Sequence record: MN850609.1
DNA length: 64,000 nt
From: Escherichia phage dhaeg
Reading direction: 5' to 3' (one strand)
Shown: piece after piece, positions 31,750 through 34,285 of the stretch
How the letters are laid out: each line of letters starts with the position of its first letter
How positions within the stretch are numbered: position 1 is the stretch's first letter
Made by a program: the position numbers and the translations under genes
The notes under the pieces: generated by a model
Seen by the model: the letters and a program-made list of their open reading frames with translations, nothing else
The model's database searches: none
Told to the model about the DNA's origin: nothing

Positions 31750-32049
31750 ATGATTTTAACTGAACAAGAAACTATTCGACTCCGTGAAAAAGTCAAGACC
31801 ATCTTGTCTGTTGGCTTTCACGAAGTTCTGTTTGAAAAGGCGGATGGCAGCGTTCGTCGTATGACTTGTACTCGCGACCTGGACCTCCTCCCGTATAAAG
31901 AAATTCAAGCACCGGGCCCAGAAGCTAATAAAGAACCGGTCAATTATATTCGTGTATTTGATACCAAGGTTAATGACTGGCGCTCGTTCCGTTTCGATAA
32001 ACTGATTTCTATTAATGGGCTTCAGACTGAAACTCTGCTTGTCATGTAA
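31750..32049 (+). CDS. hypothetical protein (99 aa)
   Basis: ORF. Confidence 0.45.
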   Translation: MILTEQETIRLREKVKTILSVGFHEVLFEKADGSVRRMTCTRDLDLLPYKEIQAPGPEANKEPVNYIRVFDTKVNDWRSFRFDKLISINGLQTETLLVM

Positions 32050-32107
32050 TATGCTTTAAGAATAGCGTGTTATTATTAATCTATCAACAAAACAACATGG
32101 ATTAAAT

Positions 32108-32431
32108 ATGGAACTTCCTATTAAAGCGGTCGGAGAATATGTTATTCTCGTTTCCGAACCAAAACAAGCTGGCGATGAAGAAACTACTGCATCTGGTATC
32201 GTTATTGGTAAACTTCACCAAGGTGAAATCCCTGAACTTTGTGAAATTTATTCTGTAGGACCTGATGTCCCTGAAGGGTTTTGTGAAGTAGGTGATTTGA
32301 CTCCACTTCCTGTTGGTAAGATTGCTAACGTGCCGCATCCTTTAGTTGCATTGGGTATTAAACAGCCTAAAGAAATTAAACAGAAATTCGTTACCTGTCA
32401 CTATAAAGCTATTCCGTGTCTTTATAAGTGA
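32108..32431 (+). CDS. 31: gp31 co-chaperonin (GroES-like)
   Basis: 107 aa; [18 protein letters not shown]...[22 protein letters not shown]...[31 protein letters not shown] matches T4 gp31. Confidence 0.95.
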
Positions 32432-32591
32432 TATAAATAATAATATGGATTGGCTGATGTCATACAGAGCTTTGCTGGTGTATGGGGTTAGCTAATCCTA
32501 AGCGGTGGACTACAACTGAGAGACTTGCCGAAAGGAAGTGAAATTCAGAAGAACGTGTCCACCAATCTTTATCTCGAATCGAGAATTTAAA

Positions 32592-32840
32592 ATGAACAAA
32601 CATCTGAATCACGCTCTTGAACTGCAACGCAACGCTTGGAACAACGGTCACGAAAATTACGGCGCATCTATTGATGTTGAAGCCGAAGCACTGGAAATCC
32701 TGCGTTATTTCAAACATCTTAATCCTGCTCAGGCTGCTCTGGCTGCTGAACTGGAAGCAAAAGATGAACTGAAATATGCTAAGCCTTTGGCTTCAGCAGC
32801 TCGTAAAGCAGTACGTCATTTTATTATTACCCTGAAGTAA
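32592..32840 (+). CDS. rIII: rIII lysis-inhibition accessory protein
   Basis: 82 aa from MNKHLNH; HENYGASIDVEAEALEILRYFKH.NPAQ.AL.AELEAK.ELK.AKPLASAARKAVRHFI.TLK. Confidence 0.85.
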   Translation: MNKHLNHALELQRNAWNNGHENYGASIDVEAEALEILRYFKHLNPAQAALAAELEAKDELKYAKPLASAARKAVRHFIITLK

Positions 32841-33193
32841 AATCGAGGAGCCGTCGAACTGTCTGATTAATGATTTGCGAATCATTATAGTTTTAAGACC
32901 CCGGCAGTTTTACGGTGTACCTCTTGAATGTTATTTTATAGCGGCAAGTGCATGCTACCCCGAGGTGATGGCCAATCGGGAGTACGCCTCAAGGCCTATA
33001 TACCCATCAGTATATATCTTATCCTCGAGAAATCGAACCCGGAACCTTTAAGCTAACGGTGCGCAACAGATAAGAGCTATGATGACGAGGTTTATGGTTA
33101 TCCTGTCGTTAAATATCCGAAACCTATGTTCCCCTTGAGGGCTTGCGCAGGCAACGCCAATAAGTCCTGCATTCTAATTTAAGAGATTTAAAA
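32841..33193 (+). other. ORF-free ~350-nt region with local hairpins (candidate structured RNA, regulatory leader or decayed gene)
   Basis: no ORF of at least 60 aa on either strand in a genome that is otherwise coding almost everywhere; hairpins at 32868-32888 and 32997-33016. Confidence 0.25.
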
Positions 33194-33355
33194 ATGGCTA
33201 AGAAAGAAGTTAAAGTAGTTGACGGAACCTCTAAACGCGCTGGTTACAAGCGTGCGTCTAACAAGCGTATCAATCAGGTAGTTGATAAGCTTCAAGCTCG
33301 TGCTCGTGCAGTATTGCGTGCAGATGCTGCTTGCTTCGGTAAAGTTATTGCATAA
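33194..33355 (+). CDS. small basic protein (53 aa)
   Basis: MAKKEVKVVDG...KRAGYKRASNKR...; followed directly by a strong terminator. Confidence 0.4.
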   Translation: MAKKEVKVVDGTSKRAGYKRASNKRINQVVDKLQARARAVLRADAACFGKVIA

Positions 33356-33360
33356 GTTAT

Positions 33361-33390
33361 GGGACTCTTCGGAGTCCCATTTTTGTTTCT
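33361..33390 (+). terminator. intrinsic terminator
   Basis: gggactCTTCGGagtccc + TTTTTGTTT. Confidence 0.7.
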
Positions 33391-33476
33391 AAATCTTTAA
33401 AAAAGGGTATACATCTCCGGTAGGCATGATACTATAGACATGTACCAAATAATACGAAAACAAACCGGAGAATAAA

Positions 33477-33845
33477 ATGAAAATCAATCTTAACTCATAT
33501 ATCAAATGTAAAGACCACGACGGTTATAAAGCTATTGAAACTAAAGAGATGCAATGGCGCTTGTACAAAGAACAATTTGAATTTGTAGGTTGTATGACTC
33601 CTGAAGGTCCTTCCGATGACTTCTCTTGGAAAATTTTGGTAACAAACTTTTTTACTGGTGATACCTACGAACTGAAAACTATCATAACCGGTAAGATTCG
33701 TTGTAAGACCTATGAAGATGAAGAAACCGGTTATTCTGAAGATGTTACATGGTATCAAAATGGTCGTATAACTGCAGATAACTTGATCGAAAAAATGAAA
33801 GCCAAAGGTGAATTAAATTTAGATAATTGGATTAAAGTTGCATAA
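33477..33845 (+). CDS. hypothetical protein (122 aa)
   Basis: ATG after ggagaataaa SD; leader nearly identical to that of the next gene. Confidence 0.5.
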   Translation: MKINLNSYIKCKDHDGYKAIETKEMQWRLYKEQFEFVGCMTPEGPSDDFSWKILVTNFFTGDTYELKTIITGKIRCKTYEDEETGYSEDVTWYQNGRITADNLIEKMKAKGELNLDNWIKVA

Positions 33846-33848
33846 AAC

Positions 33849-33876
33849 GGTTTACTTTGGTACAGGTTGTGTTATT
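33849..33876 (+). promoter_or_regulatory. early promoter cassette with inverted repeat ggtacaggt/acctgtacc
   Basis: gtttac 33849-33854; tattat 33871-33876. Confidence 0.5.
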
Positions 33877-33919
33877 ATAGACCTGTACCAAATAATACGA
33901 AAACAAACTGGAGAATAAA

Positions 33920-34285
33920 ATGAACTACATCAACTTCGAACGTAAATATGTTTCTAACGGTATCGCTGGTTCTTCTGAAGTTATTTGCCTGTGGAAACAC
34001 AACAACGGCACAGTGTGCGAAATCGAACAGTGCATGACTCCTAACTACGTTTATATGCGCTTTGAAAATGGTATCACGGTTTCAATCACTATGGAAGGTT
34101 CTACTTTTAAAATCGCTTTAGACGATGATTTCCGTCAACGTGATTTAGGTACCCATCCTTGCTGGAACGGCGCTAATCGTAAGCTTCTGGTTAAAACTTG
34201 GATTCGTCATATCCTGAGCAACCGTGCTAAACCTGAACACCTGGAAGCAATCTTTGATGTAGTTCTGAATGAATTTGATATCTAA
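33920..34285 (+). CDS. hypothetical protein (121 aa)
   Basis: ATG after ggagaataaa SD. Confidence 0.5.
   Translation: MNYINFERKYVSNGIAGSSEVICLWKHNNGTVCEIEQCMTPNYVYMRFENGITVSITMEGSTFKIALDDDFRQRDLGTHPCWNGANRKLLVKTWIRHILSNRAKPEHLEAIFDVVLNEFDI

Follow-up and report, generated by a model that had tools for sequence, protein, structure and literature searches.

A candidate array of modular RNA domains in the rIII-30.9 gap of Escherichia phage dhaeg and other T4-type phages

Escherichia phage dhaeg (sequence record MN850609.1) is a T4-type phage belonging to Dhakavirus, and 64,000 nucleotides (nt) of its DNA, here called the window, were analysed. The lysis-timing gene rIII and gene 30.9 are separated in the window by a gap of 353 nt. 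We propose that this gap probably specifies an array of self-contained folded RNA domains, which would lie on the sense strand within the rIII-to-30.9 messenger RNA (mRNA). One of these domains, module B, is, as judged by sequence comparison, an RNA family that is absent from Rfam and found only in T4-like phages of enterobacteria. Compared between related loci, the domains appear to act as cassettes, which close relatives may have, lack or carry in another order. Since the folding energy of the gap is not decisive, the case for more than chance rests on comparison, that is, on conservation and covariation.

Predicted fold of module B

Module B is predicted to form six nested helices and a contact between two kissing loops. 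Its elements are the following.

32942-33076, plus strand: module B, RNA of ~135 nt with six nested helices and kissing loops, without Rfam match
32943-32945/32994-32996, plus strand: helix P1
32954-32963/32976-32987, plus strand: helix P2
32966-32971, plus strand: P2 loop (UGAUGG), in a 6-bp kissing pairing with the P3 loop
32997-33003/33010-33016, plus strand: helix P3
33004-33009, plus strand: P3 loop (CCAUCA), partner of the P2 loop
33017-33023/33069-33075, plus strand: helix P4
33025-33028/33033-33036, plus strand: helix P5, closed by a GAAA tetraloop
33037-33041/33057-33062, plus strand: helix P6

The fold was derived by eye and with RNAalifold from 23 distinct copies of B. On an unbiased MAFFT alignment 98.9% of the cells were paired, as compared to 28-41% when the partners were slid by 1-3 columns, and changes on both sides were found in 15 of 42 pairs. 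None of 500 shuffles reached the observed paired fraction or the covariation score. A covariance model, R1, was built from B, after which three diverged copies were added to give a model-fitted alignment, A7. Here the paired fraction was 99.3% and 23 of the 36 nested pairs changed on both sides; again the observed value was matched by 0 of 500 shuffles, on every measure used. Over both alignments the pairing with slid partners amounted to 26-45%. Helix P1, most of P6 and helix Pa1 of module A (described below) are invariant and carry no covariation evidence.

The predicted loop-loop contact is the strongest single piece of evidence for the fold. Every distinct copy of B retains at least six contiguous complementary bases between the P2 and P3 loops, and the pair occurs in six versions: UGAUGG/CCAUCA, CGAUGG/CCAUCG, CUAUGG/CCAUAG, CAAUGA/UCAUUG, UUGUAUU/AAUACAA and UGCAUUU/GAAUGCA. 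Furthermore, ~60 unpaired or tertiary positions of B are invariant across genera. The paired cells comprise 31 G-U against 3 A-C combinations, and the large excess of G-U over A-C indicates that the sense strand of rIII and 30.9 is the folding strand. The R1 model scores B at 167.8 bits in the window, where it occurs as a single copy.

The window differs from all 23 other distinct copies of B at position 33062, where it has C instead of U, which turns the closing A-U pair of P6 into A-C. The closely related phage CLB_P2 has the usual U at the equivalent position, and the rest of its gap is identical to that of the window. The conserved 5' tail of B (CGGCAAGT, 32942-32949) is perfectly complementary over 8 nt to ACTTGCCG (32523-32530) in a hairpin of the rIII 5' untranslated region (5'-UTR), and the close relative L023, which lacks B, has ACTTGTCG at that site. 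As a real contact this complementarity was rejected; it is absent in B-carrying phages of the Klebsiella type and is probably due to chance. The antisense strand of B was also inspected for a tRNA-like T-arm (GGTTCGATT), which was dismissed, as its stem is unpaired and the G-U bias favours the sense strand.

Two hairpins had been pointed out in the gap by a first-pass annotation of the window made from the letters alone. Both are present, taatgatt/tgcg/aatcatta at 32868-32887 and tatatac/ccatca/gtatata at 32997-33016, although the end of the first had been placed one base too far, at 32888. They correspond to Pa4 in module A and P3 in module B, respectively, and compensatory changes preserve the pairing of both helices.

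Conservation and coding potential

Module B is better conserved than the neighbouring genes, unpaired stretches included. It is 94% identical to its counterpart in Klebsiella phage JD18, whereas rIII and 30.9 are 74.7% and 73.6% identical, respectively, and across genera the identity of B is 92-94%.

The first-pass annotation had listed the decayed remnant of a protein gene, such as a lost homing endonuclease, among the candidates for the gap. Homing endonucleases, of which segB is one that was seen, are numerous in T4-type genomes, which speaks for such an origin, as does the 58-amino-acid (aa) 'hypothetical protein' that CLB_P2 annotates inside the gap. This 58-aa open reading frame (ORF) has no match to a PHROG or Pfam family, however, and no intact gene was found at the gap position in any of ~40 related loci. 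The variable columns of B are distributed 19/21/19 over the codon positions of the ORF, i.e. without periodicity, and several relatives carry frame-breaking indels of 1 or 2 nt in B. The alignment of the rIII-30.9 region of related phages, which had been suggested as a check, revealed compensatory changes in the helices and no frameshifted gene remnant. Together with the conservation of the gap above that of its flanks, these results make a gene remnant extremely improbable. In the public records CLB_P2 is not alone: it and several other entries call a 'hypothetical protein' across module B (window 32875-33051).

Occurrence of module B

Scanning of sequence collections by exact words, which may miss more distant copies at other loci, located B in 403 of 50,697 phage records. 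Each has one copy, and in none is it annotated as RNA. The carriers are phages of Klebsiella (158), Escherichia (129), Shigella, Enterobacter, Yersinia, Salmonella, Citrobacter, Serratia, Raoultella and Erwinia. B is absent from T4 and RB69, which indicates that it is dispensable for growth. A 20-mer from the invariant core of B had no match in 185,579 bacterial and archaeal species genomes. Mimicry of a host or plasmid sequence was rejected as an explanation, since BLAST searches with the gap found nothing among 5,426 E. coli genomes and 72,556 plasmids and the 20-mer scan was empty as well.

In Tevenvirinae, B always lies inside the rIII-30.9 gap. With R1, full-length diverged copies were found in Yersinia phage JC221 (81 bits) and in the Klebsiella Pseudotevenvirus phage iPHaGe-KPN-12i (76 bits), where B follows uvsY and uvsY.-2 and stands just before the terminator facing uvsW.1. 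No 30.9 gene is annotated in the uvsY.-2-to-uvsW.1 interval of these two phages. The rIII region of JC221, whose genome is differently arranged, was not located. The window's own spacer between uvsY.-2 and the terminator is short and contains no modules. The occurrence of B at the uvsY locus without 30.9 points to a portable RNA module and not to a device specific for 30.9.

The stretch between uvsY.-2 and the terminator is ORF-poor over 250-800 nt in other phages (L076 300-1135, from JC221; L080 1490-1830; L081 1490-1740, from RB43). It holds modules resembling B and the blocks Z and H described below, together with a conserved block E (...CTTGCCGTATGGCGTA...TTTCGGCGGGGTGATTGG...AAAGGCCAGTGA). 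Block E is common to RB43 and more than 150 phages of Klebsiella, Citrobacter, Cronobacter and Enterobacter, most of which match the query at two places.

Further modules and their arrangement

The remainder of the gap is occupied by two larger modules, A and C1, and by small hairpins ahead of 30.9. Of these elements the small hairpins, including the one over the presumed ribosome-binding site (RBS), were judged by eye.

32841-32931, plus strand: module A, a branched, long irregular hairpin with a three-way top and a UGCG tetraloop
32845-32848/32920-32923, plus strand: helix Pa1
32850-32854/32912-32916, plus strand: helix Pa2
32856-32863/32903-32910, plus strand: helix Pa3
32868-32875/32880-32887, plus strand: helix Pa4, with the UGCG tetraloop
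33077-33129, plus strand: module C1, with stems S1 (33084-33090/33102-33107) and S2 (33096-33099, GGUU/33121-33124, AACC)
33131-33141, plus strand: hairpin H (CCC-loop-GGG, then CUUG)
33147-33170, plus strand: hairpin hp2 (GCAGG...CCUGC)
33172-33186, plus strand: weak hairpin over the presumed RBS AAGAGA, in which UUCU (33172-33175) pairs with AGAG (33182-33185)

For module A, 98.9% of the cells were paired, compared to 25-62% with slid partners; 5 of 25 pairs had double changes, and G-U cells (41) again outnumbered A-C cells (4). Module A occurs in T4, RB69 and JS98-type phages and is truncated in S16. Cleavage of its GGAG by RegB was considered and dropped, as the context does not fit the published GGAGRAYARAA consensus.

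Module C1 is probably a hairpin-type (H-type) pseudoknot. The outer three pairs of S1 are formed in all 21 sequences compared, and two of them switch (A-U/U-A/G-C and C-G/G-C). The core of S2, in which GGUU from the S1 loop pairs with AACC downstream, is fully paired in 18 of the 21 sequences and has one mismatch in the other three; it lengthens to 6-7 bp with compensatory changes in KMB17, PM2, L026, L027 and L056. The connecting loop is A-rich, with an invariant AAA. The words AUGAUGA and GAAA, spotted by eye, raised the idea of a hammerhead core in C1, which was abandoned because the spacing is wrong and core positions vary, including the G5 equivalent.

Hairpin H keeps its CCC/GGG stem around a loop of 3-6 variable bases across genera, with U-A replacing C-G in L026, and it adjoins B in every arrangement examined. 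An RNAalifold pairing of GGGCUUG with UAAGUCC in the leader was dropped in favour of H, whose stem persists from genus to genus around varying loops. The stem of hp2 is wholly replaced elsewhere, by GAACUGG/CCAGUUC, GGGAGC/GCUCCC or GGUGGAG/CUCCAC. Equivalents of the hairpin over the RBS are UUUUC/GAGAA in T4 and UUCUCC...GGAAGA in other genera, and one with a mismatch occurs in JS98 (L011). Tentatively, this weak hairpin may mask the RBS of 30.9. It is likely that only the last ~65 nt, comprising H, hp2 and the RBS hairpin, set the translation of 30.9. In Klebsiella phage records the annotated start of 30.9 (MYFSKMEDDK...) is too far upstream and falls inside the RBS hairpin.

A rIII-30.9 gap of 146-395 nt exists in nine Tevenvirinae genera and in Muldoonvirus. 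It was found in T4, RB69, S16, PM2, JD18, KM16, KMB17, Muldoon, Cronus and many metagenomic relatives. The aligned gaps resolve into blocks with sharp boundaries, and AU-rich linkers separate the modules. The order is A-B-C1-H-hp2 in the window, Z-A-C1-H-hp2 in T4, Y-C1-Z-B-H-hp2 in JD18, B-C1'-H-hp2 in KM16 and H-B-C1-hpX in KMB17 and Cronus. Of the blocks seen in relatives, Z consists of a conserved 9-nt loop on a stem of 3 bp, the hairpin Y has UGUACG as its loop, and D, of 57 nt, fills the slot of B in RB69. Near-identical loci may differ solely in B or D, as L024 does from L023 and L025, and some Tequatrovirus phages carry B (L067, L071), though T4 does not. No extra copies of B, C1, Z or H were found elsewhere in the window.

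The 57-nt module D of RB69 (L004 1087-1143) and its relatives contains GGTTATCTGTC, a near-repeat of the C1 centre GGTTATCCTGTCG, so that D may be a partial duplicate of C1. In the metagenome contig QZLZ01027750.1 (L073) hairpin H is joined directly to the middle of 30.9 (...CCCCTTGAGGGGATACAAGCGTGGG...), which removes hp2, the RBS and the first ~17 codons of the gene. This fusion is either a natural deletion or an assembly artefact.

The gap and its transcription unit

Over 1.1 kb at the gap the window is 99.1% identical to Escherichia phage CLB_P2 and 97.9% identical to JS98. The gene order on the plus strand is cd, 31.2, 31.1, 31, rIII, gap, 30.9, 30.8, 30.7, which is the T4 order as read on the T4 minus strand. 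The landmarks of the transcription unit are the following.

32432-32439, plus strand: late promoter with T4-type consensus TATAAATA, upstream of rIII; the nearest recognisable promoter able to drive the gap
32592-32840, plus strand: rIII gene (82 aa; PHROG 1457, E = 4e-43), annotated rIII in CLB_P2, JS98, T4 and RB69
33194-33355, plus strand: gene 30.9 (53 aa, Lys/Arg-rich; PHROG 1427, E = 6.5e-26, residues 1-51)
33359-33390, plus strand: intrinsic terminator, with a 9-bp stem (5 G-C), C(UUCG)G loop and T-run; stem-loop at 33359-33380

The first-pass annotation had described the gap as free of ORFs of at least 60 aa and as containing GC-rich segments, followed by a tiny basic ORF and a strong terminator. 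Its reading of the coding content was confirmed for both strands of 32841-33193, between the rIII stop, which ends at 32840, and the 30.9 ATG at 33194. The longest ORFs inside the gap have 58 aa (TTG start, 32875-33051) and 42 aa, and at a 70-aa cut-off the gap is the longest ORF-free stretch of the window (636 nt, counting in the short 30.9 gene). The compositional claim also holds: the G+C fraction is 0.439 for the gap and 0.504 for 32942-33076, compared to 0.397 for the window, which places them in the top 10% and top 2.5%, respectively, of windows of the same size.

No match to a sigma-70 promoter, a MotA box or a late promoter was detected on the plus strand within 32841-33193. The gap contains no terminator, and there is none before 33359. 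The predicted strong terminator is indeed there, and it is the sole terminator-like site in 31900-34000. With its G+C-rich stem-loop and T-run it has the form of an intrinsic terminator, and it ends the rIII-30.9 transcription unit. The modules would most simply be made by read-through within the rIII-30.9 message.

The 53-aa basic ORF proved to be a true gp30.9 homologue (PHROG 1427). Among 41 homologues, every named one comes from a T4-like phage and none carries a functional annotation. The best-conserved part is the basic stretch SKRAGYKRxSNKRINQ. In the AlphaFold2 model (mean pLDDT 68) the basic N-terminal part is unstructured and of low confidence and one helix spans residues 28-48; gp30.9 had no significant match among solved structures. 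These properties would suit a peptide that binds nucleic acids. Several records, among them a UniRef entry and a T4 clone, mislabel gp30.9 as '1,4-alpha-glucan branching enzyme, GH-13-type'. The downstream neighbour gp30.8 belongs to Pfam PF06019.

Two further regions near the gap have a structured appearance. The 31-to-rIII spacer (~160 nt, 32440-32591), which follows the late promoter at 32432, has a long-range stem, GGTGGAC (32506-32512)/GTCCACC (32558-32564), that encloses a GAAA-capped hairpin and is replaced by other complementary pairs in T4, RB69, KM16, KMB17, S16 and L013. A second hairpin in this spacer (CTCGAATCGAG in the window, CCTCATTTGAGG in other genera) covers the rIII RBS. 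Downstream, a 55-nt cassette, TG(A/T)TA(C/T)TATAGAC(A/C)TGTACCAAATAATACGAAAACAAAC(C/T)GGAGAATAAAATGAA, occurs twice with 93% identity, at 33427-33481 and 33870-33924, just upstream of 30.8 and 30.7, and a perfect 12-bp inverted repeat is found at 33856-33892. The two copies look like the promoter-early stem-loop (PeSL) cassettes of T4-type phages.

Comparison with known RNAs

At gathering thresholds none of the 4227 models of Rfam 15 matched anywhere in the window. When region 32400-33500 was searched at E values up to 10, the sole match was a chance miRNA hit inside rIII, and ten related loci gave just two sub-threshold chance hits, both outside the modules. Self-cleaving ribozyme classes (hammerhead, twister, hatchet, pistol, HDV-like and others) were likewise without an Rfam match, and according to ARAGORN the window lacks tRNA and tmRNA genes. 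The literature searched contained no account of an RNA in the rIII-30.9 gap. A specialist review records no riboswitch or trans-acting RNA as characterised in T4, and neither rIII nor phage T4 is named in the main text of a survey covering over 10,000 candidate phage RNAs, though its supplementary data may list the region.

The T4 RNAs rnaC and rnaD (species 1 and 2; 139 and 119 nt) are T-even RNAs of unknown function without a promoter of their own (PMC3014915, PMC9697503). They resemble B in being small structured RNAs of T-even phages that lack their own promoter, and they are released from a longer tRNA transcript. They differ from B in that they lie in the tRNA cluster and that rnaC has a tRNA-like 3' arm. 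Short words that B shares with a published rnaC probe suggested a relationship, which was rejected: the words differ in order and lie on the other strand, and R1 gave no match, at E up to 10, in the T4 rnaC/rnaD locus (L074).

The gene 32 mRNA of T2, T4 and RB69 carries a hairpin-type pseudoknot operator in its non-coding region (PMC3014915). C1, as a probable pseudoknot of the hairpin type in a non-coding part of a T-even mRNA upstream of a gene, would be comparable to this operator. By informal comparison no further likeness was seen to C1 with its two stems and A-rich connecting loop, and unlike the operator, C1 lies far from the start codon in JD18-type phages, ahead of module B.

Module B also resembles aptamers of the purine-riboswitch type, with neighbouring hairpins P2 and P3 joined by Watson-Crick loop pairing, conserved junction bases and a location in an untranslated region. 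It differs from them in lacking a helix that closes both hairpins, in the second domain (P4-P6) that follows and in having no Rfam match. B would have the conserved aptamer-like fold of a riboswitch, with covarying helices and invariant junction bases. No expression platform and no fixed gene association were found in the gap: B stands more than 115 nt from the RBS, its position varies and it occurs at a second locus.

PeSL elements, described by Arbiol et al. 2010, are reportedly short non-coding cassettes shuffled between T4-type genomes. The gap is unlike them in having no promoter on the plus strand of 32841-33193 and in its far more complex folds. Enterobacterial small RNAs (sRNAs) derived from 3' untranslated regions (3'-UTRs) are similar to B in their distal mRNA position, the lack of an own promoter and the release by RNase E that is proposed for B. 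The uvsY-locus copies of B sit, as such sRNAs do, just upstream of the operon terminator, whereas the modules of the window are set apart from the terminator by the 30.9 gene.

Discussion

The first-pass annotation had offered a structured small RNA or a long regulatory leader as further candidates for the gap. The structural part of the former is supported by the covarying folds in A, B and C1. The leader would apply to the last ~65 nt at most and fails for B, which is found at another locus without 30.9. Because B is portable, single-copy and dispensable, and its unpaired positions and tertiary contact are invariant across genera, we suggest that it would work as an autonomous RNA domain recognised by a specific partner, be it a protein, a small ligand or another RNA. 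By analogy with T4 rnaC and rnaD, cleavage at the AU-rich linkers might release it from the mRNA as a small stable RNA; alternatively, it may act without leaving the mRNA. The most likely role of B that the aligned sequences suggest is that of an RNA domain which binds a partner and is possibly excised as a stable RNA. That B is the founding member of a new functional class of phage RNA, either a self-cleaving ribozyme or a decoy (sponge) RNA, is quite possible, though it is not what we expect. As a ribozyme B would split the rIII and 30.9 messages. As a decoy it would capture a small signalling molecule or a protein of host or phage origin, and could thereby serve, for instance, as an accessory factor in counter-defence.

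Several observations weigh against an array of RNA domains in the gap. With z-scores of -1.8 (sense strand) and -0.65 (antisense strand), the folding energy of the gap is unexceptional and does not by itself set the gap apart from chance. Alignment A7 was fitted to the model and leans towards the structure, and the sequences are closely related (effective sequence number of R1, 0.99), so some of the covariation counts represent few independent events. Stem S2 of C1 is just 4 bp long in the window's own copy. T4 and RB69 do without B. Finally, a protein gene, 30.9, separates the modules from the terminator, an arrangement that fits a leader as well as an sRNA.

The two main alternative explanations are that the modules form a passive RNase barrier or that they regulate 30.9 in cis. 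In the former case the modules would be mere punctuation of the mRNA, compact folds that block 3' exonucleases or RNase E scanning without a specific partner, and the rIII and 30.9 mRNAs would decay independently. Stable hairpins between T4 cistrons are common. In both of its known contexts the position of B is intercistronic or 3'-terminal in an operon, upstream of a terminator; the modules are separated by AU-rich linkers, and the same slot can hold B, the 57-nt D or nothing, as would suit interchangeable parts. A simple barrier needs stable stems alone, however, whereas B keeps ~60 unpaired or tertiary positions invariant across genera, and a kissing contact maintained through six versions and conservation above the coding flanks are typical of specific recognition. 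We regard a passive barrier as possible though doubtful. If the whole gap were instead a cis-acting leader, i.e. a riboswitch or protein-binding operator controlling the RBS hairpin, B or C1 would serve as the sensor of a ligand or as the binding site of a protein, for which the basic gp30.9 itself may be a candidate. The modules of Tevenvirinae are always upstream of 30.9 on the same strand, an RBS hairpin is present with a sequence that differs by lineage, and the conserved unpaired bases of B resemble those of an aptamer. The predicted gp30.9, with its basic unstructured N-terminal part and single helix, is compatible with RNA binding, and the gene 32 pseudoknot operator of T4 provides a precedent (PMC3014915). 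Such a leader is rather unlikely in view of the distance of more than 115 nt, with other modules in between, from B to the RBS, and of a module order that varies by genus, with C1 before B in JD18 and after it in the window. In addition, T4 and RB69 express 30.9 without B, while B occurs in the uvsY 3' region of JC221 and the Pseudotevenvirus phage with no annotated 30.9 downstream, and no alternative terminator/anti-terminator structure was found in the gap.

The remaining explanations, including the gene remnant discussed above, are unlikely. Selfish or hitch-hiking cassettes, spread by recombination among co-infecting T4-like phages without a function for the phage, could account for the varying presence of modules among near-identical phages (L024 versus L023 and L025; Tequatrovirus with and without B), for the 92-94% identity of B across genera and for its different loci in different genera. 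There is only one copy per genome, though, with no terminal repeats, target duplications or associated endonuclease or transposase, and the compensatory changes indicate long-term selection for an RNA fold, which is unexpected for junk DNA; this makes such cassettes improbable. The conserved sequence could also act as DNA, as a protein-binding site, a replication or recombination site, or through cruciforms, since inverted repeats could form in DNA too and T4 replication origins lie inside or near genes. Modules A and B together have 72 G-U cells against 7 A-C cells, an asymmetry expected of a one-strand RNA and not of duplex DNA, and the loop-loop kiss and the pseudoknot have no obvious DNA counterpart. 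A DNA element is hardly to be expected on these grounds.

Implications

T4 and its relatives are among the best-studied viruses. The gap shows unannotated RNA domains in T4-type genomes on which selection appears to be strong. T4 itself has modules A and C1, and B occurs in 403 sequenced phages, many of which are phages of Klebsiella, Enterobacter and E. coli and belong to kinds that are being explored for therapy. In annotation pipelines the domains are left blank or overlaid with spurious small proteins. The predicted fold of B, with six helices and a loop-loop contact, is defined enough for the direct design of mutants, probes and pull-downs, and the presence or absence of modules among near-identical phages offers ready-made comparisons. 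T4-type phages have no functionally understood regulatory RNA, and module B is a candidate. Binding of a host factor by B, or its action against a defence system, would mean that the conflict between enterobacterial phages and their hosts has an RNA layer as well. Should B indeed represent a novel functional RNA, the T-even group would have in it its first non-coding RNA of functional significance, and A, C1, Z, H and E would belong to a larger set of RNA modules that are portable.

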